64,000 nucleotides of DNA from an uncultured delta proteobacterium (GTDB lineage Bacteria; Desulfobacterota; Binatia; Binatales; Binataceae). The DNA is taken from NCBI GenBank assembly GCA_963842085.1, contig CAWJET010000001.1:1-64000 (forward strand), given 5' to 3'. Both the position numbers and the translations under genes were made by a program. This document shows positions 5,198 to 64,000 of the stretch, piece after piece. How positions within the stretch are numbered: position 1 is the first letter of the stretch; each line of letters opens with the position of its first letter. The notes under the pieces were generated by a model. That model was not told the DNA's origin and ran no database searches. It saw only the letters and a list, made by a program, of their open reading frames with translations.

Positions 5198-6450
5198 CTA
5201 AACGTCGAGAGCGAGTTGGGAGAAATGTCCGCTCAAATCTTGCTGGTCGCTTTGCCCATCGTCGTTGTGCTCGTTGCCATTCCCATAGCGCGCTGTGCCT
5301 GGATTCATCGCCGTGGTATTCGGAGCGCGCGACGGCATGACCGATGTGCCGCGAACATCCTTCGGTGCCGGCACACGCTGTCCGCCGTCTGGACCGAGAT
5401 TGCCGAGTTGCTGCGTCTGTCGGCCGAAGTCCATTGCCTTTACCCAGCCAGCCGGTTCGCCGCTATTGCCGGCGCTACCGTTGCCTATCTGAGCGACCTT
5501 GTTGAATCCGGTCTGAAGCGCGCTTGTGATCGGTCGAATGATCGTCTGAGCAACGTAAGCTGCTTCGAAGGCGTGGCTGAGCGCGAGGCCAACGGTTCCG
5601 CCCGCGATGCTGGCCGCGATGTGAGGCACGGCTATGGTTACGATCGCAAAGACGATTGATTTCGCGACGACATCAAGCATTACGGCGGCTGGTACGGTAT
5701 TGGCGCAGACCATCGTAACGAGTGACGATGGAGAAGATCCGTAAGTGTCCGAACCAAGGCAGGAACATTGGGGTGGGTTTGCAGGCAGCGATCAACGCAG
5801 TGTTCCAGTCGTTCGCCATCTTCACGCCGAGAGCCAGAACCAAATAAAAGAAGAGAAGTCGGACGCCGACGTTGATGACATAGCCGAAGTAGCCTTCTGC
5901 TGCGGGCGCCGTAAAGCGGTTTGCGCCAAGGCCGAGCAGAATGATTCCGCCGCCCACGACTAGATAGGTCTCGATCAGTGTCAGCAGCAGCATCGCCGCA
6001 GCAATTACGAAGGAGAGGAGAACAATGAACGCTGCCACGCTCTGTACGATCGCGAGCTCCAAATTCGAGAGAGTGCTCGAAGTCGCGGGCGAGTTGAATA
6101 TTGTCTCGGCCATGCTGGCACCGATGACGATGACGCTTTGCGGACTGAGGGCGGGGAGTCCGGTGAGTGATGCTCCGATCGCGGAGAAACTCTTGAGTAC
6201 AAGATTCATCCACGAGAATGCATTGACGATCATCAGGTAGACGAAACCGCCGCTCAGAACTTGCTTTATGAGACGGCCGAGGAAGTGCGGTGCATCGAGC
6301 TGTCCTTCGGCGACGAATTGAATCCAGGTAACGAGGATCTCGATGAGAAGGAGCGCGAAGAACAGCTTGAGGGCGTAGGGTTGGATGGCTGCGCTGTATT
6401 TCAGACCTGCGGTGTAATACTGCCCGGCAATCGCGTCGAAGCCACGTCAT
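5198..6450 (-). CDS. trbL: P-type conjugative transfer protein TrbL (VirB6), two +1 frameshifts
   Basis: Polytopic membrane protein with Ala/Gly-rich C-terminus, after trbJ-trbK; frames join at ~6443 and ~5750. Confidence 0.8.
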
Positions 6451-6465
6451 TGTAGAATCTCCGTT

Positions 6466-6660
6466 TTATGGCTGCGGTGGTGGCGCTCCGGGCGTCGCGT
6501 GTAACAGATCGGGATAGCCAGAAGGCGCAGGCGCCGAGAGAACTGAGCGCGCTTGATCTTCAGCGGCTTTCCCTTGGTAGAGGTGCCAGATGCCGTACAC
6601 GACGGCGCACACTCCAATGATCGCCAAGATCAAGACGATGGGATTTCTGCCTTTGTTCAT
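6466..6660 (-). CDS. trbK: TrbK-like entry exclusion protein
   Basis: 64 aa between trbJ and trbL, N-terminal hydrophobic anchor, C-terminus duplicates the TrbJ C-terminus. Confidence 0.65.
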   Translation of the reverse strand: MNKGRNPIVLILAIIGVCAVVYGIWHLYQGKAAEDQARSVLSAPAPSGYPDLLHATPGAPPPQP

Positions 6661-6683
6661 GGCTTAACTGCTCGCATCAATTG

Positions 6684-7440
6684 TTAAGGTTGGGGCGGCG
6701 CCGTTCCCGACCCAGCATGCAACCAGTCCGGATAACCTGCCGGCGCTTGAGCGGATAATATCGCCTGCGCCGCAAGATTTCCTTGCACCTGATTGTTGAC
6801 CTGGTTCGCAGCCGCGACGTTCTGGGAATTCATCTCGGCCATCACGAGCTGTCGGAGCATTTGAACCTGCTGTACCTGCGCCAGCGCGATTTCGTTGCTG
6901 ACCTGAACCGCCTGCAGATTACCTATCGCCGTCTGGTTCTTCAGCTCAAGGTTTTGAAGGGTGGCCTGTTCGGCTTGGAAGTTCTGGGCCTGCGCCTGCG
7001 CTGAAGCGAGCGCACCGTTGAGCGTGTCCAGCGTGGTATTGACCGTCGTTTGCGGACTCTGGACGCCTGCGGTCGAGGCAGCGTTGTAGCCCGGATAGAG
7101 CTGCTGGAACTGCTGCGTAAGGCCCTGAAAGGTATACGAGAGTCCTTCCTGCTGATTGATCAGATCGCCGAGGTTCGTAAGCAGATTCTGGTTCGACTGC
7201 CAGACACCTGCGCCGCCGCCGGTCGTGTTCTTGATCGCGTACTGTAGTTGCTGCGCGAGGTTCGTGACGGTAGCGGTTTCCTGCTGAAGCTGCTGGAGCT
7301 GGCGCGCGAACATATTCGGGTCGAAGACAATCTGCGAGCCGCCGAACTGTGCGCGGGCAGGAACCGAAGACGCGACCAACAGCCAAACAACTGCGACCGA
7401 AACGGCAGAACAAGAATCGGGAGAATCTTTTCGACTTCAT
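6684..7440 (-). CDS. trbJ: TrbJ (VirB5-like), +1 frameshift in the signal peptide
   Basis: IVFDPNM motif, Gln-rich helices, FQQLYPGY; ATG 7440 overlaps the trbE stop; frameshift ~7410. Confidence 0.82.
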
Positions 7441-30457: not shown

Positions 30458-30473
30458 TGGCACATTGATTGCT
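30458..30473 (+). promoter_or_regulatory. Sigma-54 promoter
   Basis: Consensus match TGGCAC-ATTGA-TTGCT, ~75 bp before a small ORF. Confidence 0.7.
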
Positions 30474-42596: not shown

Positions 42597-42673
42597 TGGC
42601 GCCCCCTGCGGGATTCGAACCCACGGCCCCAGGATTAGGAATCCTGTGCTCTATCCATCTGAGCTAAGGGGGC
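42597..42673 (-). tRNA. tRNA-Arg(CCT)
   Basis: GCCCCCTTAGCTCAGATGGATAGAGCACAGGATTCCTAATCCTGGGGCCGTGGGTTCGAATCCCGCAGGGGGCGCCA; full cloverleaf with CCA. Confidence 0.96.
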
Positions 42674-42694
42674 GCTCCAAAATATATCGCAATA

Positions 42695-43948
42695 TCAGGT
42701 ATTTATGGCGCTTATTGATTTGGGTCGGCCGTTACGACCAGATTCAGTGCCCACTTTTTGCCCACTTTTCTTCGGGTTCGCCAAAAAGCCTTGCGCGAAC
42801 CGATCGACCGCGCCGGTATCAGCATCCTTGAACCAGTGCGAGTAAACCCTGAGCGTGACGGCCGGATTCGAATGCCCTAGCCGGTGTTGAACTTCGGTGA
42901 TGGGTGCGCCAGCGGCGATGAGTCCGCTCGCGTACGAGTGCCGCAAGGTCTTGACGTTAGCGCCTCGGAGCTCTGCGCGACGCAGCGCCGGATAGAGGCC
43001 CTGGCGCAGAACGTTCGAGCGATGCAGCGGTTGTCCGTCGACCCGACAAAATACGAGATCGTGCTCGGACTGCGGACTCTGCAGTTTCCAGACCTTCAAC
43101 ATCGCTACCAGCGCCGTAGGTAGTGGCAGCGTGCGATAGCCTGAACGCGTCTTAGGTTCGTAAAATTTCGGCCGCACGCGACCCTTCTCCTCCAATCCAC
43201 GCGACCAAGAAAGCGAGCGCCGTACGGAGAGTCGAGCGGCGTCGAGCGAAACGTCGCTCCACTTCAAGGCATAGACTTCCTCAGGCCGCATGCCCGTCGC
43301 CGCGACCGTGGCAAAGAGAGTCCGATAAAGGCCGGGCGCGGCGTGATTGAGCAGCTTCTTGATCTCGTCGGCGCGCAAAACCTCGTCGGGACGAACGGCG
43401 CGCAATCCCTTGCCGCTTTCGTCGGTTCCGTCGGCGACAGTTAATTCCGCAACCGCCCTGCGCGGCCGCTCCGCGATTGCCGCCGGATTGTTAGCGACCC
43501 AGCCACGGCGCTGAGCAAGTTTGAATACTGCGGCGCAGGTGGTCAGGACCGCGCTTATCGTTTTCGCTCCCAAGTTTGCGCGCAATTCATCGCGCACACG
43601 CTCGACCGCGGCTACGTCAATCCGATCGAGCCGGACGTTGTCGAGCTTGGCGAGGTGTTTGAGATGGACGCGCCATCCTTGCACGGTTGCTGGATGGCGA
43701 TCGCCCTTCTCGCGCAACCATTCCTCGCCGGCCTTCCCGAACGTGGGAATTTTCTCCGGCGAGATATATTCGCCGCGCGCGACCTTGGTTGCCGTTGCTG
43801 CGAGATGTTTTTCGGCTGCCTTCTTGGTCGGGAATTCAATCCGCTTCCGAGGTCCTGCGAGTCCTTGCGGCCGGTAGTCGAGTCGCCAGGGACAATCGCA
43901 ATCGCCGCCCACACACGTCGCTTGGTGATACCGTTTGATCAAAGCCAT
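42695..43948 (-). CDS. int: Tyrosine integrase
   Basis: TGMRPEE, PKT, TLRHSY, LGHSNPAVTLRVYSH; N-terminal arm-binding-like region. Confidence 0.93.
   Translation of the reverse strand: MALIKRYHQATCVGGDCDCPWRLDYRPQGLAGPRKRIEFPTKKAAEKHLAATATKVARGEYISPEKIPTFGKAGEEWLREKGDRHPATVQGWRVHLKHLAKLDNVRLDRIDVAAVERVRDELRANLGAKTISAVLTTCAAVFKLAQRRGWVANNPAAIAERPRRAVAELTVADGTDESGKGLRAVRPDEVLRADEIKKLLNHAAPGLYRTLFATVAATGMRPEEVYALKWSDVSLDAARLSVRRSLSWSRGLEEKGRVRPKFYEPKTRSGYRTLPLPTALVAMLKVWKLQSPQSEHDLVFCRVDGQPLHRSNVLRQGLYPALRRAELRGANVKTLRHSYASGLIAAGAPITEVQHRLGHSNPAVTLRVYSHWFKDADTGAVDRFAQGFLANPKKSGQKVGTESGRNGRPKSISAINT
42744..42765 (+). repeat. Tandem 11-bp arm-type sites inside the int 3' end
   Basis: TCAGTGCCCAC TTTTTGCCCAC, ~98 bp from the tRNA-Arg anticodon stem. 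Confidence 0.65.
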
Positions 43949-44148
43949 TAGTCCCCTCCCCTCTTCCCCGTACGCGCCCGGCGGTCGGCAGCGATTTTTT
44001 GGAGGAGTCTGGCGGCGGGCTCGGAGATCGCCATTTCGCCGCGCTCCCAGCGGGCTACCGTGTTCGAGGTTACTCCAATGGCCTCGGCCAAGGCCATCTG
44101 AGTCCAGCCCAATTTTTCTCTGAATGCACGAATTTCCACACCGGTCAT
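43948..44148 (-). CDS. XRE-family HTH regulator, coupled to int
   Basis: IRAFREKLGWTQMALAEAIGVTSNTVARWERG; TAATG overlap with int. Confidence 0.88.
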   Translation of the reverse strand: MTGVEIRAFREKLGWTQMALAEAIGVTSNTVARWERGEMAISEPAARLLQKIAADRRARTGKRGGD

Positions 44149-44186
44149 ACTATACGCAGCGTATAGTATGACTAAGCGGAAGTCAA
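44144..44186 (-). promoter_or_regulatory. Sigma-70 promoter overlapped by a perfect 14-bp inverted repeat
   Basis: TTGACT-17-TACGCT, 9 nt before the ATG; GTCATACTATACGC-A-GCGTATAGTATGAC at 44144-44172. Confidence 0.7.
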
Positions 44187-44587
44187 GCGGCTTGGCTGGC
44201 GCGTTGTGTGAGAAAGCGCTCGACTTCTTCGAGTCTGAAGCGAACGTAGTGACCGAGTTTGAACGATGGGAGAATGCCGAGGCGAGCCTGTTCTCTAACC
44301 CACGATTCTGGAACGCCGAAGAGCTCGGCGAGTTCGCGCGCGCCCAACAATTTACTTCCGGCGTGGCTGAGGCCTTTCGTCGCGATGCGCTCGCTGAGCA
44401 TCAGCGAAAGCAGCGCACCTTCCAGTGTTTTGAGCGCCGCAACGCGCAACGCGACCTGGCTCAAGAGTTCCGGGACCGACTCGAGGACCAAGCCTCTTGT
44501 GCGCGATGGATCGGCGAGGAGTTCCTCGATAGTTGCGGGCGACAGTGTAGCCCGCGGCGCAACTTGGTGCGGCGCTTGATGCGACAT
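44183..44587 (-). CDS. Excisionase-like HTH_17 protein
   Basis: LLGARELAELFGVPESWVREQARLGILPSFKLGHYVRFRLEEVERFL; GGGAGG RBS. Confidence 0.8.
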   Translation of the reverse strand: MSHQAPHQVAPRATLSPATIEELLADPSRTRGLVLESVPELLSQVALRVAALKTLEGALLSLMLSERIATKGLSHAGSKLLGARELAELFGVPESWVREQARLGILPSFKLGHYVRFRLEEVERFLTQRASQAA

Positions 44588-44644
44588 AAACCCTCCCAAG
44601 GTCGCAAGCACACCACAACCACACATTCATCCTAGAAGTCATTG

Positions 44645-44660
44645 AGCAACTGCAGTGCCG
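44645..44660 (-). promoter_or_regulatory. Sigma-54 promoter for the excisionase-like gene
   Basis: CGGCAC-TGCAG-TTGCT (GG-N10-GC), ~58 bp upstream of the ATG. Confidence 0.68.
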
Positions 44661-44764
44661 CTTTTGGATTCCATGCGCACGGCGTGACCGTTTATGTTCA
44701 GGCCGTTCTGATCGAGACGGCGTGGACCGATTTGGCGATCAAACGGCCAAGACGCGTGTGTGCA

Positions 44765-44852
44765 TGTGCAATCTTTGCACACACAATCGCAAGTGTCCGT
44801 GGCGATTTCGGAATTTGGCCTGCTCGCGCTACATATGTGCAAACTTTGCACA
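44765..44852. promoter_or_regulatory. Two palindromic enhancer (UAS)-like sites
   Basis: TGTGCA-ATCTT-TGCACA at 44765 and TGTGCA-AACTT-TGCACA at 44836, 71 bp apart. Confidence 0.7.
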
Positions 44853-45055
44853 CTGAGCGCCGCGCGTTCGGCGGAACAGTCTAGGTCGCTCGCTCTGTGA
44901 CGCGGGTGCTGAGGTTGAGCGATCAATGGAAACACAATGGGTTGTCGATATCGCTCCCTGAAGTCCGAGTTAGGGCGGGAAAGGAAGCCGTCGCCAAGAG
45001 TAGCTGAGGCTACTATTAAGATTCCGTGAACAGCAGAATGTAACCAAAATTAACC

Positions 45056-45086
45056 TGTTGACAACTTATCCACAGCCCGATTATTT
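45056..45086 (+). promoter_or_regulatory. Sigma-70 promoter containing a perfect DnaA box
   Basis: TTGACA(45058)-17-TTATTT; TTATCCACA at 45066-45074. Confidence 0.6.
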
Positions 45087-45141
45087 TCTGCGAACGTGCT
45101 GGCGGGGGTGGGGGTTGTGATTTTGATCTCGCGAGCGAACA

Positions 45142-46122
45142 TTGGTTGGTCAGTCGCTAGCGATACGCCGGGCCATACGCCTGATCGAAGAAGCCGCTCT
45201 TACGAGCGCGCCGGTGATCATCACTGGCGAGAGCGGTACGGGGAAAGAGCTGGCCGCACGCGCGATCCACGACAGATCGCCGCGGCAAAACCGACCGTAC
45301 GTCGCAATCAATTGCGCGGCAGTCCCTGAAAGCCTGATCGAAAGCGAACTCTTCGGCCACGAGCGCGGGGCCTTCACGGGCGCTGATCGCCGCCGCGAGG
45401 GATGCTTCGAGCGGGCGAACGGCGGCAGCCTTCTGCTCGACGAGATCACCGAGATGCGGCCGGAGATGCAGGCCAAACTGCTCCGTGTTCTCGAAGAGAA
45501 GAGAATTCTCCGTCTCGGCGCGAGCAGAGAGCTGCCGATCGACGTGCGGGTCTTCGCCGCATCCAATCGTTCGCTGCATCAATCGATCCGCCAGGGGCGA
45601 TTGCGCGAGGACCTCTACTACCGTCTTAACGTTTACACAGTCGAGCTGCCTCCGCTGCGCGACCGGCTCGAGGATTTGCCTTTGCTCGTCGGGCACTTCA
45701 TTCAGGAATTCAATCGGGAACACAAGAAAAGGGTCCAAGGAATGGGCCAAGACTGTCTCGATGTCCTCCGAGCGCACGCGTGGCCCGGAAACGTTCGAGA
45801 GTTGCGCAATGTCGTTCAACGCGCGGTGATCAGATGCCCATCTCCTATGCTGTCGGCTAAAGATTTGCCGATGGAGTCCGTTCCTTCTCATAACGCGGAA
45901 GCGCACTTCATGGTTCGCGTTGGCTCGGCAATGTGCGAGGTCGAACGCGAGTTGATTTTCCGGACCTTGGCCTTCGCCGGAGGAAATAAGGCTCGCGCAT
46001 CCAATCTTCTCGGTATGAGCCGGCGGAATCTTTACAATCGGCTTCAACGGTATGAGGTGCACGAAACGAATGGACATCTCAAGGGACACGCTTATCGTAA
46101 CGGCCGCAATGGTAGCTCGTGA
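45142..46122 (+). CDS. Sigma-54 enhancer-binding protein lacking a sensory domain
   Basis: GESGTGKE, ESELFGHERGAFTGA, LDEI, REDLYYRL, WPGNVREL, Fis-type HTH; no receiver/GAF/PAS domain. Confidence 0.92.
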   Translation: MVGQSLAIRRAIRLIEEAALTSAPVIITGESGTGKELAARAIHDRSPRQNRPYVAINCAAVPESLIESELFGHERGAFTGADRRREGCFERANGGSLLLDEITEMRPEMQAKLLRVLEEKRILRLGASRELPIDVRVFAASNRSLHQSIRQGRLREDLYYRLNVYTVELPPLRDRLEDLPLLVGHFIQEFNREHKKRVQGMGQDCLDVLRAHAWPGNVRELRNVVQRAVIRCPSPMLSAKDLPMESVPSHNAEAHFMVRVGSAMCEVERELIFRTLAFAGGNKARASNLLGMSRRNLYNRLQRYEVHETNGHLKGHAYRNGRNGSS

Positions 46123-46223
46123 AGAAACTTCGCCTCGCGTCGCGGGGCCACTAATCGTCCAACCATCTCTGAGCGTTTGCAATTGCAAACGCTGGGCCGA
46201 GGCTCTTTTGCTACACGCGCTGT

Positions 46224-46451
46224 GTGGCAAACGAGGAGGCTCTATTCCGCCGGAGGCTGCGCGAGATCGTCATTCAGAAGTACGGCTCGCTCGATCGCTT
46301 CTATCTTGAAACCGATTTCTCCAAGGGGCACCTGTCTCAGATTCTGCGTGGCAAGCGCAGCCCCTCACTCACGACGATCGTGAAGCTTGCCCGAGCCCTC
46401 GACGTTCAGATCGGTGATTTCTTCGCGAGGCAGCAAAAGACGAGACTGTAA
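46224..46451 (+). CDS. XRE-family HTH protein
   Basis: SKGHLSQILRGKRSPSLTTIVKLARALDV. Confidence 0.78.
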   Translation: MANEEALFRRRLREIVIQKYGSLDRFYLETDFSKGHLSQILRGKRSPSLTTIVKLARALDVQIGDFFARQQKTRL

Positions 46452-46733
46452 TTTCGCCGTTATTCGAACCCGTCCACGCGCGCTGGCCCCGACCTCAGGG
46501 TCCCGTGAAATTGAAAACCCCAGTTCCTATTTCAAGATTAATCGTGTCTCATTGATGGCCTTACTGTCGGCGTGAGGTGCGTCGCGCGCCGCTTGACCAC
46601 GATCCGCAATCAAAAGTAGTTAATTGAATGACATCGCATCGAAAAATCCCGTGCCGAGGAACGGCGGCGCTCGGCTCGAACAAAAATCCGGACGTATTTC
46701 GATTTCTGGCGATCCTCTCTCACGCTCAAACCG

Positions 46734-52223: not shown

Positions 52224-53099
52224 TTACGCGACTGGGTGAGGTCGGGAGAGGATGAAGTCTGCCGCGTGCTGCGCTTGGGCTGCGGCTAGAATCACAAGGC
52301 GACGATCGTCGCGGAGCTTCTTTAGCCAGCCGGCCACGTATGCGGCTTGGTTAGCGATTACTGCGTTCGAGATTCCTGCTTCGGCGCACAAGTAAGCGCC
52401 TCCCATTTCTGCGATCAATTCTTCTTTGGAGTAGGCGGCGGATCCAAACTCGGCGGCTTCTGTAATGCTCTCGCGCGCAAGTCGCTTTCCGTGACCGGTC
52501 GAGTGGATTGCCTCGTGAAAAATCGTTGATCCGTATTCCTCCGCTGAGACAAACAGATTTCGGGGCGGCATCGTGATCCGATCCGCGGCGCTGCTGTAAA
52601 ACGCCTTGGTTCCGGCATGCTCGATCGCGGGCGGGTTCGGCATTCCGGCAATGATCCGCTCTACCGCTTCGATCGAATCGTGCTGGTGGGTTTCAATCTT
52701 CGGCAGCTTTTCGAGGGCGCGTTCCGTTAGCTCGCACTGCTCGACGTTCCAGACCCGATAGTATCGAAGGACAAAGCGGCGGCGAGACTCGTTATCGGTT
52801 TCCGCTTCGCTCGTGGGCTCGGTCTCGGCGCGTCGATCTTCGACCTTCCAGAAAACTATGATCGTGCTCTCCTCGCCTTTGCGAATGTGTCCGCCGAGTT
52901 CGTTCGCCTGTCGCATGGTCAACCAGTACGGCTGCACGTACTTGGACGCTGAAAGCAGAAAATGATTGATCCCTCGATATGGCTTCTTGCTCACGACATT
53001 GCGCGGCAATCCGCCTCCGGTCCACGGCCTGCGCCATGGCACGACGCCTTGTTCAAGCAGGTTGATGATCTTTTCCGTTACAATCGCATACACGTCCAT
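52224..53099 (-). CDS. ardC: ArdC-family antirestriction ssDNA-binding protein
   Basis: PWRRPW, PYRGIN, WLT..QANELGG..RKGE, HEAIHSTGH, EELIAE. Confidence 0.92.
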   Translation of the reverse strand: MDVYAIVTEKIINLLEQGVVPWRRPWTGGGLPRNVVSKKPYRGINHFLLSASKYVQPYWLTMRQANELGGHIRKGEESTIIVFWKVEDRRAETEPTSEAETDNESRRRFVLRYYRVWNVEQCELTERALEKLPKIETHQHDSIEAVERIIAGMPNPPAIEHAGTKAFYSSAADRITMPPRNLFVSAEEYGSTIFHEAIHSTGHGKRLARESITEAAEFGSAAYSKEELIAEMGGAYLCAEAGISNAVIANQAAYVAGWLKKLRDDRRLVILAAAQAQHAADFILSRPHPVA

Positions 53100-53178
53100 T
53101 GTCGTAATCTCCGAAATTGAATTCGTTTGGTTTGAAGAGAGAGCCGCTCTTTCGCGACTCTCTCCTGATTGATGAGTC

Positions 53179-53562
53179 TTAGAAGGGGATATCGTCGGAC
53201 GCTTTCGCTTTTGGTGCGGCGGTTCCGTTCGTGCGATTTCCGAGCAAACGCATTTGCAGCGCTACGATCTCGGTTCGATAGCGCGTGCCGCTCCCGTCCT
53301 TCGCCTCGTACTGGCGGGTTGTCAGCCGTCCCTCGACGTAGACCTGGCGTCCCTTGGAAAGCAGGCGCTGGCAGTTGTCCGCGAGCTTCCCGAAGGCGAC
53401 CACGCGATGCCATTCGGTACGCTCCTGTTGCTCGCCGTTTCGATCCTTGAATCGAGCCTTGGTTGCGACTGAGAAATTCGCCACGTTCTGACCTGACGGC
53501 AGTGCGCGAACCTCGGGATCACGGCCCAGATTTCCGACTACGATCGCTTTGTTGATAGACAT
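53179..53562 (-). CDS. ssb: Single-stranded DNA-binding protein
   Basis: [33 protein letters not shown]. Confidence 0.95.
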
Positions 53563-53595
53563 GACACTTACCTCCAATTCCTTTTGCTGTTTGAT

Positions 53596-53805
53596 TTAGA
53601 ATCCGTCTTCGTCGATCCGGTGGGCGTTGAAATCGCGTTCAGCCTTTTCGCCGTGACCGCAGCGAGTGCCGTAGAGGCCCTTATCGCAGGGGTAGTAGAA
53701 CGCTCGCTCTCCAGAACTGATTCCCGTCTGGCAATTCGGCTCGGCGCATCTCGCCGGATACCGGACGGTGATCCACTTGGGATCGCACTTGAACCTTCGT
53801 CTCAT
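53596..53805 (-). CDS. Small Cys-containing hypothetical protein
   Basis: AAGGAG RBS; MRRRFKCDPKWITVRYPARCAEPNC...FYYP...; first gene of the ssb-ardC operon. Confidence 0.65.
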   Translation of the reverse strand: MRRRFKCDPKWITVRYPARCAEPNCQTGISSGERAFYYPCDKGLYGTRCGHGEKAERDFNAHRIDEDGF

Positions 53806-54248
53806 TGTCGTTTCTCCTTTCCGCCCGCTTCCCGTCATCGGGCAGGGCGTGCTTCGCGTTTGCTTTCATCACCGCGCAACATTTTTCGCGGCGACCTCTC
53901 ACCCAAATCTGGAGGTCGCTGCGCAGATTCCAGATGCGCGAGCGGAGCGGGCGGCAGGACGTGCCACAGCGCAGCGGCCCGGAGGGCTGGCGCGGCGTGC
54001 TAGCGCAGCGAACGCTACCAATGAGAGCGGCCGCGAAGCGGAGATCGCAGGCGGAGATGGGGGTCGCGTTGGGCCGCGACGCGGAGTTTACGGAGCGCTC
54101 GCGGGGCGGCTCACAGCGGAGCGGCACGCGTGTCTGTTCAAAATGAGTCGGCGGAGGGACTTCGCGAGAATAAGCTTCGTCCTTCGTTTAGCCAATGCGA
54201 GTTTCTCTGGAGTAACGAAATACTCCTGAAGGCGCACAAACGGCTGAA

Positions 54249-54701: not shown

Positions 54702-56126
54702 ATGCCCGACCATAACGACTTCTCAATCCTCATCTGGCAGATCGCGGATCTGCTGCGAGGACCGTATCGCCCGCCGCAGTACGAGCGCGTCATGTTGCCG
54801 ATGACTGTTTTACGCCGATTCGATTGCGTGCTGGCACCAACCAAGACCAGGGTCCTCGCGGAGCATGAAAAGCGAAAGGGTGGCAAACTCAACAACGAGG
54901 CCATCGACAGACTTCTGAACAAAGCGGCCGGTCAACGATTTCACAATCACTCCCCCTTGGACTTTGAAAAACTGAAGGGCGATCCGGACCACATTGATAA
55001 GCATCTGGCCAATTACATTGACGGCTTCTCCGCCAATGCTCGAACGATCTTTGATTTCTTTGAGTTCGAGAATGAGATCGAGAAGATGCGCGAGGCGAAT
55101 ATTCTCTACCTCGTAGTGTCCAAGTTCTGTGATGTGGACCTCCATCCGAAGACCGTAGCCAACGAGCAGATGGGGCTGATCTTCGAGAATCTCATCCGCC
55201 GTTTCAATGAATTGGCCAATGAAACCGCGGGCGATCATTTCACTCCGCGTGAAGTGATAAGGCTGATGGTGAATTTATTGTTCGTCAATGACGACGAGCT
55301 ACTCGCCACTCCTGGCACGGTGCGCAAACTCCTCGATCCTGCCTGCGGCACCGGTGGCATGCTCGCCGAAGCGCAGAACTATCTGCGCGAACATCACTCG
55401 GCGGCTCGCCTCTTTGTGTATGGGCAGGATTACAACAAACGCGCATTCGCGACTGCGGCGTCTGACATGCTCATGAAAGACGTCGATCACAACGGCGGCG
55501 GCGACAACGTTCGATTTGGGGATAGCTTCACCGAGGACCGATTCGAACGCGAAACTTTCGATTATCTCCTTTCAAACCCGCCGTTCGGAGTCGACTGGAA
55601 GAAGCAACAAAAAGAGATCACAAGTGAGCATCAAAAACGCGGCTTCGCGGGCCGCTTCGGTGCTGGGCTTCCGCGCGTGAACGACGGGTCGCTGCTGTTC
55701 CTGCAACACATGATCAGTAAGTTTGAGCCGGTGCTGCCTGATCAACACAAACACGGCTCGCGTCTCGGTATCGTCTTTAGTGGTTCTCCGCTGTTCACTG
55801 GGGGCGCAGGCTCAGGTGAGAGTGAGATTCGCAAATGGATAATTGAGAACGACTGGCTCGAAGCGATCGTCGCTCTACCCGAGCAGATGTTCTACAACAC
55901 CGGAATCGGAACGTATGTATGCATCGTCACCAACCGCAAGGAAAGGCGCCGCAGAGGCAAGATCCAGCTCCTAGACGCGCGAGCGCTCTATATCCCGCTC
56001 CGCCGCAGCCTTGGTGACAAGCGGCGCAAAATAGGTGAGAAGGAGGACGGCCGAGACCAAATAACCGAGATCGTGCAGCTCTACGGGCGCTTCGCTCGCA
56101 CTGACACCTCCAAGATATTCGACAAC
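54702..56126 (+). pseudogene. hsdM: Type I R-M methyltransferase subunit truncated by IS3
   Basis: IWQIADLLRG, HFTPRE, DPACGTGG, NPPF, FYNTGI; sequence breaks at SKIFDN into the IS end. Confidence 0.9.
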
Positions 56127-56166
56127 TGTACGTCGTCAGAACCTATTGGACAAGTTGGCACAGGAA

Positions 56167-57180
56167 TTAAGAGAGGATCTGGTCCATCTGAGTTGAACCT
56201 TTGGCTGCGAACGAATGATGCAGCCGGCGTCTGGCTTCGATGGTTTTCAGTTTGGCATTTTTCCTCCGTGACAGAATCGCGGGACCTCGGCCGAAGTAGA
56301 CGTCGGCCGGGGTCAGGTTGTTGAGACTTTCGTGGTAGCGGCGCGAGTTGTAGTAGTCGACGAACTCGGCCAGGCGCGCTTCGAGCTGACCGGGCAGGTA
56401 GTAGTTCTCGAGCAGGATCTGGTTCTTCATCGAACGATGGTAACGTTCGATCTTACCCTGGGTCATCGGGTGATAGGGCTTGCCGCGGGTATGCATCATG
56501 CCATGCTCCGCGAGCCAGGAGCCAAGCTGGGCCGACACGTACGACGGTCCGTTGTCGCTCAGCAGGCGCGGCCGGTGCCGGACGCGGACGCGCTCCAACC
56601 CGGAGTTGCGCAGCGCCATCGCGAGGGTGTCGGAGACATCGGTGGCAGTCATGGTGGTACACAGCTTCCAGGCCAGGATATAGCGCGAGAAGTCATCAAG
56701 GACAGTCGACAGATAGAACCAGCCCCAGCCGATCACCCGCAGGTAGGTAAAGTCGGTCTGCCAGAGTTGATTGGGTGCGGTGGTTGGATGGGCGAAGCTG
56801 TCGGCTGCCTTCATCAAGATGAAGGCCGGGCTGGTGATCAGGTCGTGCGCCTTCAGCAGCCGATAAACTGAGGCTTCCGAGACGAAGTACTGCTGCTGGT
56901 CGACGAACGAGACCGCCAACTCCCGCGGCGATAGCTGCGGTTCTTTGAGCGCAAGCTCGAGCACGGCCTGAGTAACTGCAGCTGGGAGCTTGTTCCACAC
57001 CCGCCGCGGCGCCGGCGTGCGATCCTCCAGCCCTTCATCATCGCGAGTTCGATAGCGATCGTACCAGCAATAGAAGGTGGACCGTGGGATGCCGATCTGC
57101 TCCAGGGTGCGCCGCACCGGCAGCGACGACTGCTCGACCAGCCGGATGATCTCCAGCTTCTCGGCGGCCGCGTACCTCAT
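56167..57180 (-). CDS. IS3 transposase OrfB
   Basis: DDE motifs plus YNSRRYHESL...TP. Confidence 0.93.
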   Translation of the reverse strand: MRYAAAEKLEIIRLVEQSSLPVRRTLEQIGIPRSTFYCWYDRYRTRDDEGLEDRTPAPRRVWNKLPAAVTQAVLELALKEPQLSPRELAVSFVDQQQYFVSEASVYRLLKAHDLITSPAFILMKAADSFAHPTTAPNQLWQTDFTYLRVIGWGWFYLSTVLDDFSRYILAWKLCTTMTATDVSDTLAMALRNSGLERVRVRHRPRLLSDNGPSYVSAQLGSWLAEHGMMHTRGKPYHPMTQGKIERYHRSMKNQILLENYYLPGQLEARLAEFVDYYNSRRYHESLNNLTPADVYFGRGPAILSRRKNAKLKTIEARRRLHHSFAAKGSTQMDQILS

Positions 57181-57551
57181 ATATCGGACTCCCCATCCGC
57201 CAGCACGCTTTTTTTGAGCAGGCGGTTCTCCATCATCAGTTCGGCCAGCAGTTCCTTGAGCTGATGGCTCTCCGCCCGCAGCTCCTTGACTTCATCGCTG
57301 GTCGCTTCACGCGCGGTATCGCCGGCCAGCCGCCTCTTGCCCGCCTCCAGGAAGTCCTTGGACCAGCGATAGTAGAGGTTCTGGTTGATCCCTTCCTTGC
57401 GGCACAACTCGGCCACGCTATCCTCGCCGCGCAGGCCGGCGATCACGATCCGGACCTTGTCCTCAGCCGAGAAGTGCCGGCGGGTCGCCCGCCTTATGTC
57501 GCGTACCGCCTTTTCCGCCCCATCCGACTGCGCATCGATTTTCGATCTCAT
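57177..57551 (-). CDS. IS3 transposase OrfA
   Basis: Paralog of 74..448. Confidence 0.92.
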   Translation of the reverse strand: MRSKIDAQSDGAEKAVRDIRRATRRHFSAEDKVRIVIAGLRGEDSVAELCRKEGINQNLYYRWSKDFLEAGKRRLAGDTAREATSDEVKELRAESHQLKELLAELMMENRLLKKSVLADGESDI

Positions 57552-57639
57552 CTACCGCTCCTTCCGCGGTTAAAGATGAGCCAAAAACCCTCTCTTCCTC
57601 AATCGCCTCGAATTGTCCAACTTGTGCTGACGGGGAACA

Positions 57640-58322
57640 AGCTCGCCATCGCAGACGCCCTTGACCTGCTGCAGACGTTCCGCGGCGCTGATCTTACGCA
57701 AACGATCTATCAGATTGAAAAGTCCCTGAGAGGAGCCTCGGCTGACGGCTACGCGGCCGTATTGACGACGAGCGGCGCGAAGGCAGAAGTTCTTGGCGCT
57801 GCGGGTCTAGTCAAGCGGTTGGCCGGACAGATCAATGTCGTCATCCACGCGTTAGGCATACTCTTGTGCCTCCCTCATATCCTTCGACCCGGCGAAATCA
57901 TCGACTACGTTTCACTGGGCGCCGGAAACACCGGTAGAGCATTTGATTTGGAGACTAACCAGCGTATCGCGGAATTCAAATTCATCCACTGGCGGGGCGG
58001 GCCGGAATCGATCCGCCAAAACTCGCTGTTCAAGGATTTCTATGAGATGGCGGAGTGCGAAACCCCGAAGGAGAAATACCTCTATATGCTCGGCTCAGAT
58101 CATGGGGAGAAGTTCTTTAATGGGGGCCGCGCCTTGACCAGCGTCTTGAGCAGCAACGGAACCCTGCGGAAGAAGTTCAATGATAAATTCGGGAATCGCT
58201 ATCGCAGTGTGCGCGACTATTATGTGCCAAGGAAAGGGCTCGTGGTAATTCAGGATGTATCGACCTTTGTGCCCGAACTGGTTGCAGCGGCTGTCGAGGC
58301 TGTTGAAGCTGACGAGGTGTGA
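57640..58322 (+). pseudogene. PD-(D/E)xK-like nuclease, 5' end replaced by IS3
   Basis: FDLETNQRIAEFK D...ExK motif; open frame begins at the IS boundary with no native start. Confidence 0.55.
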
Positions 58323-58457
58323 GCCTATGCCGGCGTGCCCAGATATGGCAGCGAGCATCGCCGGCCGCACTATTGGTCAGATTCTCGGACGCCTATTCGG
58401 TGATGCAAAGTAGACAGGCGAGAATTCTTTTAGGGTACAGCTCGATGGAGTCATTGT

Positions 58458-61400
58458 TCAATTCCATTCGCCGATCAGTACAAAGGGAGCCCAGAAGAAT
58501 GGGGATGCCAAAGACTGCTGCTCGCCAGTGACGGCGCTTTTGATCTGCTTCCGCATCGTCTCAAGGCGAGCTCGACGCAATGCGTCCGGCTTGGGGAGCC
58601 CGCTCTTGAGCCCTCTGTAGAAGGACTCCATGAACAGACTGGTGGACTCGTCGCTCACCTCCCAAAGGCTCGCGACGACCGATCGACTGCCAGCGAACAA
58701 GAACGCACTCGTCAGGCCGACGATGCCTTCGCCGCGAGACATCTTGCCGCGAGCGGTCTCACATGCCGAAAGCACGACAAGATCCGCCTTCAGGCGAAGA
58801 TTGAAGATCTCGGACATTTTTAGCAAGTCACTGTCGGGTGCGCCGGTACTATCTGGAGAAAAGATTAGAGCGGGCTGGTTAATCCATCGAACCTCGTCGC
58901 CCATAACGGCATGCGTGGCGAAGTGAAGGGTACGGTACTGGCTCAAGTCGAGCCCCAACAACGCTCGCTTAGTGGCATTGCTTCCAAGATAGACAGAACT
59001 CGATTGTGGGCTGATCCCATAGACCGCTAGAATCGCGTGCACTTCCTCGGCCGAATAAGGGAGGCGATCAAAACCGACACCCATTTTTGCATAAGCACCG
59101 CGCGTGCTGAGCGCGAGTTGGGACGGCGCGGGAGTGGATTGAAAAGCTGGATCTCCGAAAGCTAACAGAGGGCGTTGAGCGGAGCTCGGATTGCGCCTGA
59201 TGCCTTTCAGAGCGACAAGGACCGAAGCGGACGGAGCGTAGCTGAAGTCATACGCCTTGCCCAAGTAGGGCTGAGACGCAAGAGAGTCCGCTGGCCCGTC
59301 CAGTTTCGCGTCGGCATCGATGATTGCTTCGAACGGCAAATAGAAGAGGTCGGCATCTGGCACGACCACAATGTGGTGTTTGCCCGCGATTTGATCTCGG
59401 ACAGGAGCAACGAGATCGGCATAGAGTTGCTTTGCGAGTTGCATGTGGCTGTTTATCTCCGAGCTTCCGAATAGCGGTTGTCGAAGCGTCGGTAGGAATT
59501 GGTCCAATGTTTTGTCGATGACGTCTTGGGCCGGGAGCCGGTACAGCCGGATTTGACGGTTCGTTATAACCCCGACCCCTGAGAACGACGGTCCGAGATC
59601 GTACTCCAGGAGCACAGTGTCGTCGTCCAGCAAAGCCTGGACATCGGAGACTCGCACGGGTGTTGACGATTCCATGCTCGCGTATTTCGCATTTGTTGCG
59701 GCGATTTTTTCGTGAACCTGGCGCAGCTCCGCCGTTTGCTCAGTCAGAGCGTCTTGCAAAGTCACTTTTCTGAGCTCTGAGACCGTTGCATCGGAAAACG
59801 CATTCTGGAGCGCCGAAATCTTTACTCGCACCGCATCTTCTTGTCGAACCAACGCTGGATCGACACCCTCGCGAGCGCGAACGCCCGCGTCGTTCAAGAG
59901 ATCCAAAAGGGCGCGCGCCTTCCCTTCTTCGTGGTACGTGAAAGCTTGGTCAAGCAGCTCAGCCGATGGCGCTTTCGCATACAGTTCGAGCGTTACGCGC
60001 GTCAGGTTTTCGTAGAGACCCCAGGCGAGTTCCCTTGAGGAAAGCTGCAGCTCTGGCAGCTGCTGCCCGCCTCCGAATCGTTCCATTACTTCAGCGGCGC
60101 GCCGGTCGTAGCTAAGCGCGGCATCTAGGTCGCCCTGCTTCTCGTAAGCGTAACCGATCCGCGCATAGACCCACATAACTTCGGGACTCTTATATTTTTC
60201 CGCTATAGCCTCCGCTTCTGCGAATGCGCTTAGGGCGTCCGCGTAATCGTTCACGCGCATGTACGCATCTCCAAGGAAAACCGAAGCGAGCGCCAGTTTG
60301 CGAAGAGTCTGTTCATTCTGCGGCAGCTTACGATACACCGCTACCAGCGGCCGCAACATTGTCATCGCGTCTGCTGGAGTGCCGTATTCGGCCTCCATCT
60401 CGCCAATAGCGAGGAAAGAGTCTCCAAGAAGGAAGTTCATGGCCTTGGAGCGGTCTTTGAGCACACTGCTGGCAAGTTCCTCGCCTTGCTGTTCGTACTT
60501 TGCTTGGGCCGACAAATCTCCGATCTGACCTGCGACGTAATACAGTCGAAGGAGATCCGTCATTTGTGCATCGTCATCTCCAGCCTGTCGGCTTTCCATG
60601 AGGGCGTAATCGTACCATCGCGCTGATGCTCTGAAATCCCCGATCTGCCGATAGATCTCGGCGACTTTTGCGAGGGTTAGTCCGGCGTTCTTGTGATCGG
60701 CGATCGACCGGTATACTTCGACGCCCTGGGTATAGAAGGCGAAGGCTTGATCATAGTTGCCAAGGTCACGCTCAATGTTGCCACGCTCTGCAAGAATGCT
60801 TCCTTCGATTTGCGTCCGCTGCCGCGCATTGGTGAATTCAGGGAGCGCGCGCGATGCGTCGTCAAGGTAACTTTGAGCAGCGGCAAAGTCACCGGACGTT
60901 TCGGCCAATTCCCCTAAGCCGTAGAGCGCGGGCGAGTAGCGCGGCTTCGCACTGAGAGCCCTCTGATAAGCGTGCCGCGCGTCCTCGACCAGCCCAATAT
61001 TGGCGTAGCCATTACCAAGGTACCAGTAACACTCCGCGCAATCGGGCCTGAGTTTAACCGCTTCGCTGGCGGAATCGACGGTGCGTTGCCACAAGCCAAA
61101 AGTTTGATAAGAAAATGCGAGCGCCGAATAAGATGCGTAATTCGATGATGTACCGTTGACGCGACTTAACCTTTGGAGAGAGTTCCACGCTTCAGGCAGT
61201 CTTCCCAGCTGAACGTCCACGAACGCAAGCTGGGCGTAGGCATCAAAATAGTCGGCTTTCAGGGCTATAGCCTTCGCATATGCTGATGCGGCCTCTGGAA
61301 GCCGATTCGTCGTGCCGTAAGCCGTTCCCAAGAGGTAGTACGCCTCCGGGACGTCCGGCTTGAGGCGAATCGCCTGCTGTTCGGCGATGATTTCCTGATC

Positions 61401-62126
61401 GCTGTGCCCGCTCTTCCCGAAAGCTTCGCCCATATAGAGATAGGCGGCGGAATTGTCTGGGTTGAGTTTGATGGCTTCGTTGAATTCTTTAATTGCTTCG
61501 TCGAACCGTCCGCTCTGGCTGTACGCGAAACCAAGAGTAAAGTGGTTTACAGCGAGCGTTGGATTTTGACGAACAGCCTTTTCGAGAAGTTCGATCGCCT
61601 CTTTGGATTTTCCCAGCCACGCGAGGGCCGAGCCTAGACCTACCTGAACTCCAGCGTCGTCGGGCTTCAGCTTGGCTGCCTGCTGAAACGCCACGAGTGA
61701 ATCCTGCCAACGGCCTAGCCCCATGTACGCAAAGCCCAAAAGAGAATATGGCAGATAACCGAGATTCGGGTTGTCTCGAATTGCAGCTTTGAGTTCATCC
61801 GCTGATTCTTGCCATCGCTGAGCTTTCTGGTACACGATGCCCAGCTGCAGTTCGATTGCGCTCCGCTTTCCTTTGTCTTGCTGCTGAATTTCGTCCAGGG
61901 CGGCTTTGTACTTATCAATTCCGACTTCTATCTGCCCCGTTCGGATTGCGGCAGCGCCCTGTAGAAGCAACTCCTCTGGTTTGCCGCCTGCCGATGACTG
62001 AGGTGCGGGTTGTGTAATTGTCGAGGAGGCAGCCGACGAAACCCCGCATGCCGCGAGCGTCAGCGCGGCTACCAGGATGAAGGACCTGGTGAGCTTGCCA
62101 CGACGAGGGCGTTGCTCTGCGTCCAT
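58458..62126 (-). CDS. TPR-CHAT (caspase-like) lipoprotein
   Basis: LAAC lipobox, long TPR array, KARALLD, VPDADLFYLPFEA, catalytic dyad HFATHA and VLSACET, SLWEVSD, WAPF. Confidence 0.92.
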   Translation of the reverse strand: MDAEQRPRRGKLTRSFILVAALTLAACGVSSAASSTITQPAPQSSAGGKPEELLLQGAAAIRTGQIEVGIDKYKAALDEIQQQDKGKRSAIELQLGIVYQKAQRWQESADELKAAIRDNPNLGYLPYSLLGFAYMGLGRWQDSLVAFQQAAKLKPDDAGVQVGLGSALAWLGKSKEAIELLEKAVRQNPTLAVNHFTLGFAYSQSGRFDEAIKEFNEAIKLNPDNSAAYLYMGEAFGKSGHSDQEIIAEQQAIRLKPDVPEAYYLLGTAYGTTNRLPEAASAYAKAIALKADYFDAYAQLAFVDVQLGRLPEAWNSLQRLSRVNGTSSNYASYSALAFSYQTFGLWQRTVDSASEAVKLRPDCAECYWYLGNGYANIGLVEDARHAYQRALSAKPRYSPALYGLGELAETSGDFAAAQSYLDDASRALPEFTNARQRTQIEGSILAERGNIERDLGNYDQAFAFYTQGVEVYRSIADHKNAGLTLAKVAEIYRQIGDFRASARWYDYALMESRQAGDDDAQMTDLLRLYYVAGQIGDLSAQAKYEQQGEELASSVLKDRSKAMNFLLGDSFLAIGEMEAEYGTPADAMTMLRPLVAVYRKLPQNEQTLRKLALASVFLGDAYMRVNDYADALSAFAEAEAIAEKYKSPEVMWVYARIGYAYEKQGDLDAALSYDRRAAEVMERFGGGQQLPELQLSSRELAWGLYENLTRVTLELYAKAPSAELLDQAFTYHEEGKARALLDLLNDAGVRAREGVDPALVRQEDAVRVKISALQNAFSDATVSELRKVTLQDALTEQTAELRQVHEKIAATNAKYASMESSTPVRVSDVQALLDDDTVLLEYDLGPSFSGVGVITNRQIRLYRLPAQDVIDKTLDQFLPTLRQPLFGSSEINSHMQLAKQLYADLVAPVRDQIAGKHHIVVVPDADLFYLPFEAIIDADAKLDGPADSLASQPYLGKAYDFSYAPSASVLVALKGIRRNPSSAQRPLLAFGDPAFQSTPAPSQLALSTRGAYAKMGVGFDRLPYSAEEVHAILAVYGISPQSSSVYLGSNATKRALLGLDLSQYRTLHFATHAVMGDEVRWINQPALIFSPDSTGAPDSDLLKMSEIFNLRLKADLVVLSACETARGKMSRGEGIVGLTSAFLFAGSRSVVASLWEVSDESTSLFMESFYRGLKSGLPKPDALRRARLETMRKQIKSAVTGEQQSLASPFFWAPFVLIGEWN

Positions 62127-62139
62127 CGGGGCTCGCTGC

Positions 62140-63822
62140 TTAGTGACAAAATTTAACTTGGTGATAAGGGATCAATCCCGTTTCGAACGCCCTGGCCACT
62201 TCAGGGGCTAAGCTGTCAAGTCGAATTTTCGTGTCCGGGCGTTGGTACCGATCGATCTTGCTGCTCCCGGCCGACGAATATCCAATTAAATCAACCACTC
62301 CGTCGCAGTTCAGATCATAGTAATAGACTATCTGTTGCCATTTCGGATCCACGCCTTTGAAAACCGTATCGAGTTTGTCTTTCGTCGAAGCACCCATAAC
62401 AGCGTACTCAGGCATGTCCTGATCGCCTCGTAGCGCTAACCAAGCGTCCGGTGGAGGAGTCTGAGATTCCGTGTACGCGCCGGCGATCTTGTCGCCAAAA
62501 CGTTCGACACGGCGAATCCCTCCGTTCGCCTTAGCGGGAGCTTCGGCGACGCGGTTCGTCGATCTCTTGAGAAAGGTTTCAATAGTGTCGCCCGCGATAG
62601 CGTAGTTAAGGCCCTCTCCCTGCATGCGAAAAGAGTTTATTCCGATAACTTGAGCATTGTTGTTGAGCAACGGACCGCCCGAATTGCCAGGGTTTATTGC
62701 CGTCTGTGTCTGGATGACAGTTGCGCTATGCGTGATTTTTTCATCTTTCCATTCGTACTTCGGTCTGATCTGGCTGATGGTTCCCGTCGTATACGTCCAT
62801 ACCTCACCTTCGGGGTGCCCTATGGCATGCACGTCATCGCCGACCTCTAGTTTGGAAATATCGCCCATAGAAAGAGGATGTAGTAGGCGCGAGGGGGCTT
62901 CAACTTTCAGCATTGCCAGGTCGGAAATCTCGTCTACCTTGATAGGTACAGCTCCGTAAGCAAGATCCTTCCTTACCTCAACACCTCGCTCCGGCTTGAA
63001 AACGACCGCGATCCGTTTTGCATCGCGAATGACGTGGTAATTGGTCAGAATTTCTCCAGTATTGCTTACTAGAACGCCGCTTCCGAGACCTGTATCAGTG
63101 ACGACCAGGACAGTGCCCGGCGCCGCCTCCTTGTAAACAGCTGCGTCGACTGCTCCTCGTGTTTGTTCCAAAATGAGAGTCTTGGGCAGGCTCTCCAGAG
63201 CCGACAAAACGCGCGTATTCAATGCATCGGAGCTAGCCGAAACCGGCGCAATAGCGGGAACGATTCGCTTCGCAAATGCGCGCTCGGCAAAGGCTCCTAC
63301 GCCTTCCCGAGCAAGTTCACCACTGGACTTTCCCGGCTGAGAACCGACTCCAGAAGAACGCACCAGCACAAGTGCCAAGAGTGCGGCGACGGCGGTGCCA
63401 GCGACCCCCAGAACAACGCGAAAATCGGTGGCGAAACTTCTGACTGATTCGAACATTGAAGCGAGTCGTCTGTAGAACGACGGCTCCGCCGGGGAGGTCG
63501 AGCTGGTCTCTGCTCGCACCATTGAAATCACCTTCTGCAACAGCGCGGCGCTAGGTTCGGGACCGTGATCTTGGAGCCGCGCTAGCTCGCGAAGCTCGAT
63601 AAGGCGATTGATGCACGCGGGGCATGATCGAAGGTGCATCTCGATCGACCTGGAATCCGTCTGACGATCATCGCTAACGAACGCCGCTGAATGCAGGAGA
63701 GGCAACTTCCTCTCTGCGTCAATACTCTGGTCCAGAAAATCACCCAGCGCCTTGATCGTGGGGCAGTCAGGTCGCGACGTTTGACCGAGCTGACCGAGTA
63801 TACGCCGATCAATTTCACTCAT
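62140..63822 (-). CDS. zf-HC2 anti-sigma domain + TM helix + trypsin-like serine protease
   Basis: CPT...HLRSCPAC, TM VVLGVAGTAVAALLALVLV, GSG, LTNYHV, DLAML, INPGNSGGPL. Confidence 0.85.
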   Translation of the reverse strand: MSEIDRRILGQLGQTSRPDCPTIKALGDFLDQSIDAERKLPLLHSAAFVSDDRQTDSRSIEMHLRSCPACINRLIELRELARLQDHGPEPSAALLQKVISMVRAETSSTSPAEPSFYRRLASMFESVRSFATDFRVVLGVAGTAVAALLALVLVRSSGVGSQPGKSSGELAREGVGAFAERAFAKRIVPAIAPVSASSDALNTRVLSALESLPKTLILEQTRGAVDAAVYKEAAPGTVLVVTDTGLGSGVLVSNTGEILTNYHVIRDAKRIAVVFKPERGVEVRKDLAYGAVPIKVDEISDLAMLKVEAPSRLLHPLSMGDISKLEVGDDVHAIGHPEGEVWTYTTGTISQIRPKYEWKDEKITHSATVIQTQTAINPGNSGGPLLNNNAQVIGINSFRMQGEGLNYAIAGDTIETFLKRSTNRVAEAPAKANGGIRRVERFGDKIAGAYTESQTPPPDAWLALRGDQDMPEYAVMGASTKDKLDTVFKGVDPKWQQIVYYYDLNCDGVVDLIGYSSAGSSKIDRYQRPDTKIRLDSLAPEVARAFETGLIPYHQVKFCH

Positions 63823-64000
63823 CGCGCAACGACCTCGATCTCCCGCGAAGCCGGCGGGTCGCGGAAATGCTTTCTCGCTTGCCAGACCTTATCGGTGGGT
63901 CAGTCCGAATCACGGAAACCTCAGCGGGCCTTTATTCCTCAGTTCCATCGACCGACTCCCCGCCCTCATCCGTGCTGACTATCGTATCATCGGGTGTGAT

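Follow-up and report, generated by a model that had tools for sequence, protein, structure and literature searches.

The DNA analyzed here is a stretch of 64,000 nucleotides, called the window throughout, at the start of contig CAWJET010000001.1 (C1 below; assembly GCA_963842085.1) of an uncultured delta proteobacterium of the Binataceae. Five genes lie together between positions 42695 and 46451. A tyrosine integrase gene, a small XRE-type regulator gene (xre1) and an excisionase-like gene (xis) are on the minus strand, and a sigma-54 activator gene and a second XRE-type regulator gene (xre2) diverge from them on the plus strand. The integrase gene adjoins a tRNA gene at one end of a 28.9-kb island. 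On balance, we read this region as the control center of that island, with a sigma-54 switch acting on xis and with excision as its most likely output. A preliminary description of the window had proposed that the island encodes its own sigma-54 activator to trigger excision; the sections below set out which parts of that proposal stood.

The xis promoter and the divergent activator

The xis gene (44183-44587, minus strand) encodes a protein of 134 amino acids. Translation most likely begins at the ATG at 44587, which has a GGGAGGG ribosome site 4 nt upstream and from whose methionine the homologs align; this replaces the ATG at 44626, the start of the open reading frame in the preliminary description. 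The intergenic region that separates xis from the activator gene is 554 bp long and houses a -24/-12 box and two palindromes. The box, CGGCAC-N5-TTGCT (CGGCACtgcagTTGCT, 44645-44660, minus strand), has its GG and GC exactly 10 nt apart in the TGGCAC-N5-TTGCW context. Such a pattern is far rarer by chance than found here, as YGGCAC-N5-TTGCW occurs twice in the window against 0.12 matches expected, a number reached by none of 100 shuffles. The whole 4.93-Mb genome has 11 matches. Transcription of xis is predicted to start near 44634, leaving a leader of about 47 nt that folds no better than its shuffles (z -0.87).

The two palindromes, both TGTGCA-N5-TGCACA, stand at 44765-44781 (proximal) and 44836-44852 (distal), 71 bp apart from center to center. 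They begin 105 and 176 bp upstream of the box, within the range of about 105 to 190 bp given in the preliminary description, and the predicted start lies about 139 and 210 bp downstream of their centers. No further match with one mismatch or fewer occurs in the window, where 0.10 would be expected, and the genome has five perfect sites. No good sigma-54 box and no palindrome site occurs in the island other than those of the xis promoter. A conserved block, TTTGGCGATCAAA (44731-44743), lies between the enhancers and the promoter, the usual place of a DNA-bending protein.

The divergent gene (45142-46122, plus strand, TTG start) encodes a bacterial enhancer-binding protein (bEBP) of 326 amino acids. 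Pfam assigns it a Sigma54_activat domain (PF00158, residues 1-167, E 1.6e-68), an AAA_lid_14 domain and a C-terminal HTH_8 helix-turn-helix (residues 266-304, E 6.3e-12), and its translation contains GESGTGK (Walker A), LLLDE (Walker B) and GAFTGA. The AAA+ domain begins at residue 1 and there is no N-terminal regulatory domain; an in-frame stop 15 nt before the TTG leaves no room for one. All 12 unbroken activators that were aligned likewise begin directly at the AAA+ domain, and their sigma-54 contact motif is GAFTGA in eight and GSFTGA or GAFTSA in four. The preliminary description had called this gene a sensor-less GAFTGA activator with a Fis-type HTH, followed by an XRE gene, and both statements were correct: xre2 (46224-46451, plus strand, 75 amino acids, HTH_3) comes next. 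The host has the sigma factor as well, in the form of a single rpoN gene (PF04552, 215.7 bits, C1:997341-997817).

The activator gene has a conserved promoter of the sigma-70 type (45058-45087, plus strand), with TTGACA and TATTTT 18 nt apart and TTATCCACA in the spacer. The TTG start codon is weak, and some relatives have ATG instead. The surrounding region, 45020-45141, is highly conserved, with CTGT-N2-ACAG-like palindromes over and upstream of the -35 element and TCGCGAGCGAA just ahead of the TTG. The spacer element TTATCCACA, which we take to be the DnaA-box consensus, occurs 19 times in the genome on both strands. A G/T-rich motif, GTG(T/G)GGTTG(Y)G, precedes the start codons of xis and of the activator gene alike by about 35 nt (window positions of about 44620-44630 and 45108-45120), in 14 of 31 loci for xis and 7 of 22 for the activator, against one background match in 17.9 kb. 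The activator HTH is followed by a conserved C-terminal tail, NGHxNGxxYRNGRNGSS (46060-46119), which is also recognizable in the third activator of the genome, described below.

We infer the following course of events, from binding and transcription start to excision. Its own sigma-70-type promoter would supply small amounts of the activator, under the control of some input. It would bind both 17-bp palindromes, and the DNA would loop, with the conserved block at 44731-44743 as the place where a bending protein would act. Hydrolysis of ATP by the activator would open the closed complex of sigma-54 holoenzyme at CGGCAC-N5-TTGCT. The xis gene would then be transcribed, possibly with read-through into xre1 and the integrase gene, and the Xis-like protein and integrase would recombine the 40-bp repeats that flank the island, resulting in excision. 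A sigma-54 promoter is silent without its activator; thus, the amount or the activity of the activator would set the on/off decision. Within this course, we consider the sigma-54 activation step at the xis promoter highly probable.

Conservation of the unit and its other copies

The Xis-like protein has homologs in 46 of the 165 genomes of the order and in 14 of its 30 genera, a patchy distribution of the kind that mobile DNA would be expected to give. Loci were scanned in one genome per species. This gave 62 loci, and the 33 with a full-length xis homolog were used for counts. The hosts of the related loci are all uncultured Binataceae, and all are represented by metagenome-assembled genomes. 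The loci belong to one bacterial family and are non-independent, and the argument is from motifs that are fixed as against a spacer and flanks that vary.

Conservation in homologous loci, which the preliminary description had named as a check, is borne out. NGGYAY-N5-TTGCT stands 57 to 79 nt before the xis ATG in 30 of the 33 loci, with 13 distinct 5-nt spacers, and the same pattern occurs nowhere else in the 356,542 nt searched in those loci. With up to two mismatches allowed, at least one palindrome is present in 28 of 33 loci and at least two in 24, against 15 matches in the remaining 178,271 nt of the loci. In 24 of 27 loci, the distance from the start of the proximal palindrome to the box is 120 to 124 bp; in the other three, only the distal site passes. 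A divergent activator gene accompanies them in 27 of the 31 loci in which this could be judged. In L103 and L107, the palindromes at the same places are TGTTCG-N5-CGAACA, and other loci have TGTTCA/TGAACA; such symmetric changes in the half-sites are as expected of a site bound by a dimer. A by-eye comparison of the bEBP HTH with these palindrome variants yielded no recognition code. The three loci lacking the box are L088, L104 and L110, and the latter two have a different small HTH gene upstream.

Box and palindromes remain fixed while the flanking DNA diverges, with xis identity down to 54%. We regard the sigma-54 part of the interpretation as strongly supported by this comparative evidence. 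Three of the loci (L080, L085 and L089) come from two genomes flagged as unpublished, as do L016 and L023 in one of the alignments. No conclusion rests on them, and with the three set aside the box is found in 27 of 30 loci, at least one palindrome in 26 and at least two in 23.

The genome of the window has three activators of this subfamily, one on the island, one on contig 2 and one at C1:739124-740104, and its five perfect palindromes are all within 2 kb of one of the three. The third activator is sensor-less, 56% identical to that of the island, and has GSFTGA (positions 6115-7116 of locus L133, or C1:739115-740116). Two adjoining palindromes, TGTGCAAAATCTGCACA, are 1.7 kb away from it (L133 8846-8990, or C1:741846-741990). 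This locus has no homologs of xis, xre1 or xre2, and therefore the palindrome is tied to the activator subfamily, not to the XRE proteins.

These observations bear on the idea that the xis promoter responds to a host activator, or to the paralog at C1:739124-740104, while the palindromes are XRE operators and the neighboring activator serves some other target. A 56% identical paralog with the same type of palindrome elsewhere in the genome would fit this idea, as would the loci that have kept the box with no intact activator nearby (L083 and the broken copies). We consider it improbable, since palindromes of this type are also found where XRE and xis homologs are absent, since palindrome, box and activator travel together at a fixed distance in 27 of 31 loci, and since other palindromes, unlike these in sequence, accompany the XRE genes.

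The locus of the third activator has further features. A sigma-54-like box, TGGGACACTCCTTGCA, and a GC-rich hairpin come 46 bp after the TGTGCAAAATCTGCACA palindromes, between two convergent genes. A small RNA under sigma-54 control may be encoded here, and cross-talk with the island promoter could arise from this locus.

The copy on contig 2 (L050, 8986-12736) is a second whole module, comprising xre2, activator, palindromes, a CGGCAT-N5-TTGCT box, xis, xre1 and an integrase of 425 amino acids, with another integrase directly behind. Its xis is 76-77% identical to that of the window, and its activator, spread over three reading frames, is probably a pseudogene.

Outside the island, the window has another canonical sigma-54 box, TGGCACATTGATTGCT, at 30458-30473. 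The genome has near-identical copies of this box (TGGCACATT-N-ATTGCT) in four places.

The island and excision as the proposed output

The integrase (42695-43948, minus strand, 417 amino acids; PF00589, E 2.3e-23; phrog_1 integrase) adjoins the integration target, a tRNA-Arg(CCT) gene at 42597-42673 on the minus strand (ARAGORN). A 40-bp direct repeat (att) at 42635-42674 marks the left end of the island. It consists of the 5' 39 nt of the tRNA gene plus one base and reaches the anticodon loop. A genome-wide search placed the right copy, identical at 40 of 40 positions, at C1:71569-71608. The island body thus runs from 42675 through the end of the window at 64000 and on to C1:71568, 7.6 kb beyond the window, for a length of 28,894 bp. 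A search for a repeat of the tRNA gene within the window found nothing longer than 15 bp, because the right end of the island lies outside it. A mini-element ending at a 10-nt match at 46462 was dropped after the 40-bp repeat turned up. Contigs from soil run X3 part from the window sequence exactly at 42674, in agreement with this boundary. The element is an integrative island with intact ends at tRNA-Arg(CCT).

Insertion is on the 5' side of the tRNA gene, a less common arrangement, so that the 5' half of the functional gene has to come from the island. Fragments of tRNA-Arg(CCT) from its 5' part (query 1236-1276) and from its 3' part (query 1198-1245) occur in other genomes of the genus and have about 10 nt in common at the anticodon loop; this tRNA gene is therefore a hot spot entered from both sides.

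The preliminary description had set the island beside integrative and conjugative elements (ICEs), and this status was not borne out. Pfam found no relaxase, coupling protein or type IV secretion domains in the 38 island open reading frames scanned, ten of which had no match at all. Among the island genes, those for an ArdC-like protein and a single-stranded DNA-binding protein are the only ones to suggest single-strand transfer.

The protein made from xis has a long N-terminal helix and a C-terminal winged helix of the HTH_17 family (residues 80-129, 38.1 bits against a cut-off of 27). It matches the PHROG excisionase families, among which phrog_66 is named "excisionase and transcriptional regulator". 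Fold matches of the winged helix include the directionality factor RdfS (8dgl) and the regulator BldC (6ama), all at E above 0.1 and none at or below 0.001. An excision role for this HTH_17 protein is plausible. A complex predicted for integrase and the Xis-like protein scored 0.00, in a run without controls, and is evidence neither way.

The small regulator xre1 (43948-44148, minus strand, 66 amino acids; HTH_3, E 3.4e-12) is kept between xis and the integrase gene in related loci, and its stop codon overlaps the start of the integrase gene. A perfect 29-bp palindrome with 14-nt arms (44144-44172) extends over the xre1 start codon, between xis and xre1. Related loci retain its core, CTATACG-N3-CGTATAG, while the outer arms co-vary, and as RNA it has a strong fold (z -3.79). 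It is a candidate operator, or a candidate RNA hairpin that would mask the xre1 start codon in read-through transcripts. Just upstream, a conserved TTGACT overlaps the xis stop codon. The xre1 and integrase genes may have a promoter and operator of their own, in which case only xis would be strictly sigma-54 dependent.

The proposal that an island-encoded sigma-54 activator triggers excision thus stood with respect to the motifs, the conserved activator, rpoN and the island with intact ends. For excision as the output, we consider the chances evenly balanced, and several observations weigh against the interpretation that we favor. The NCBIfam model TIGR01764 ("excise") gives the Xis-like protein 26.7 bits, short of its cut-off of 28.8. 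The protein is atypically long for a directionality factor, owing to an N-terminal helical extension of about 75 amino acids; residues 1-78 form an extra long helix that is well predicted. Identity in xis is uncoupled from identity in the integrase (93% against 46% in L071, 84% against 94% in L074), and regulatory cassette and integrase have therefore been shuffled independently. Given a possible promoter for xre1 and the integrase gene, integrase need not depend on sigma-54. In L088, TTGGT replaces TTGCT. The activator gene is broken or truncated in six of the 27 related loci that have it, in addition to the second copy in the genome of the window, and therefore many copies may be inert. Finally, contigs from two RNA runs cover parts of the activator gene (45145-45399 and 45156-45295), of xis (44276-44489, with 17 differences) and of the integrase gene, and yield neither a start site nor a strand. 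Such contigs carry no ends, strand or level, DNA is possible in such libraries, and no conclusion is drawn from them.

The main alternative accepts the sigma-54 unit as real and takes the HTH_17 protein to be an AlpA- or BldC-like transcription regulator, or a feedback partner of the activator, and not a directionality factor. The switch would then govern immunity, transfer or cargo genes of the island, and excision would be affected at most indirectly. The length of the protein with its probably oligomerizing helix, the "excise" score under the cut-off, the presence of BldC among the best fold matches, the uncoupling from integrase identity and the span of HTH_17 over regulators as well as excisionases (as in the name of phrog_66) all agree with it. 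On the other side, the place of xis directly upstream of xre1 and the integrase gene is conserved in nearly all loci, and the island has no second target bearing the same promoter or palindromes. We consider this alternative unlikely, if a serious one, and continue to favor a switch whose output is excision.

The broken activator genes could also mean that the module is a decaying remnant, kept by recent common descent, that now switches nothing. No excision junction was seen, and all hosts belong to one family, with loci that are non-independent. This appears very improbable to us: box and palindromes are constant across 13 spacer forms and diverged flanks, and in the copy studied here the integrase and activator genes are intact, as are all five genes, and the att repeats are identical.

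A wider model can be put forward only tentatively, and we think it rather doubtful as a whole. The activator, the two enhancers, the -24/-12 promoter, the Xis-like protein and an XRE regulator would form a portable cassette that serves a family of Binataceae islands as the master switch between leaving and staying. It would recombine freely with different integrases, and the near absence of leak from a sigma-54 promoter would lock the island in. Feedback on the activator, of the kind that PspA exerts on PspF, may come from the coiled-coil N-terminus of the Xis-like protein.

Several known systems come close to the one described here. One is PspF and the pspA promoter of Escherichia coli, where a divergent sensor-less activator with its own sigma-70 promoter acts on a sigma-54 target through two upstream sites in the shared intergenic region. 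The same layout of divergent genes, two sites, sigma-54 target and sigma-70-type activator promoter is found here, as is an activator of about 325 amino acids made up of AAA+ and HTH domains. The island activator is not an ortholog of PspF, as the NCBIfam pspF model (TIGR02974) matches residues 2-241 with 264 bits against a cut-off of 443.55. Whereas the E. coli target is an envelope-stress operon, the target here is an excisionase-like gene that neighbors an integrase gene in a mobile island, and a PspA-like anti-activator was not identified. We see a known kind of regulatory unit, PspF-like, placed on a recombination module.

HrpR and HrpS of Pseudomonas syringae work as a pair and activate the sigma factor gene for type III secretion. 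They are also sensor-less sigma-54 activators on a horizontally acquired island, but their target is not the recombination genes of that island. In SetCD, AcaCD, FseA with RdfS, BisDC, ImmR/ImmA and AlpA, as here, a regulator encoded by the element decides the expression of a directionality factor; to our knowledge, none of these uses sigma-54 or an AAA+ enhancer-binding protein. Upstream activator sequences of NtrC and NifA, the latter TGT-N10-ACA, resemble the paired 17-bp palindromes described here, being rich in TGCAC/GTGCA or of the TGT...ACA type and located 100 to 200 bp upstream of a -24/-12 box. They differ in half-site order in the case of NtrC and, in the case of NifA, in spacing, which is TGT-N11-ACA here.

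A full-text literature search, whose coverage excluded most subscription journals, returned no paper linking sigma-54 or enhancer-binding proteins to excisionase or excision control. In the portions consulted of an ICE review (PMC5812530), RpoN appears solely in the reference list and RpoS is the only sigma factor in that context; in those of PMC5882170, RpoN likewise appears solely in the reference list.

Mobile islands must hold excision almost fully off and yet inducible. Known elements control excision by repressors, sigma-70-type activators or quorum signals. If our interpretation is true, an enhancer-binding protein of the island's own combined with sigma-54 would be a new control logic for mobile DNA, one without basal leak, driven by ATP and dependent on host rpoN, and island stability would hang on a sigma factor of the host. 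With its small number of well-delimited parts, the circuit can be rebuilt in a laboratory host although its natural hosts, the Binataceae, are uncultured.

Accessory parts and cargo

The xre2 gene is present in six of the 17 related loci in which the activator gene is unbroken, meaning that a single alignment runs from residue 1 at least as far as residue 322, and is therefore an accessory part. A perfect 22-bp palindrome, AGCGTTTGCAA/TTGCAAACGCT (AGCGTTTGCAATTGCAAACGCT), lies upstream of it at 46172-46193. The palindrome is present wherever xre2 is and is conserved in all seven loci compared. It has the hexamer TTTGCA in common with the enhancer half-sites, in the opposite arrangement.

A Cys-rich N-terminus, MASIKRxHQxxCxGxxCxCxWRLDY (43870-43948 in the window), recurs in the integrases of this family even at 47% overall identity. 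A second type, beginning with MGCIRK, occurs with the same xis-like gene, and the Cys-rich N-terminus is common to integrases across types.

Cargo genes of the island, as identified by Pfam, encode an APH-type kinase, a sulfatase, hydrolases and a TetR regulator; an ArdC-like protein, a single-stranded DNA-binding protein (SSB) and HsdM; a 1222-aa CHAT-TPR protein with a trypsin-like partner; and an ECF sigma factor, an IS transposase, NUDIX and GNAT enzymes and an AraC/GyrI regulator. The ArdC-like gene, the SSB gene and an open reading frame of 148 amino acids form a block at 52224-54127 that recurs in related islands at 51-94% identity, 6 to 8 kb from the module. This block is a candidate core of the island family, and its recurrence hints at transfer of single-stranded DNA. 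Defense-like cargo (HsdM, the CHAT-TPR protein and the trypsin-like protease) occupies 54702-63822; the defense-like cargo of a related island (L054, 13257-19900) is a subtilase with components of an ABC-3C system. The IS transposase (rve, 337 amino acids) lies in the island beyond the window (L049 6843-7856, or C1:66843-67856), and a second such transposase is found elsewhere, beside a truncated phosphoketolase gene (L133 4540-5553). The two are equal in length and in Pfam scores, and are probably copies of one active IS.

An Rfam scan of 43900-46600 returned no families. Searching a "phages" collection with the activator protein brought up mostly mislabeled bacterial contigs with ordinary NtrC-type genes and gave no useful context. 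Part of the stretch is present in 20 soil sequencing runs.

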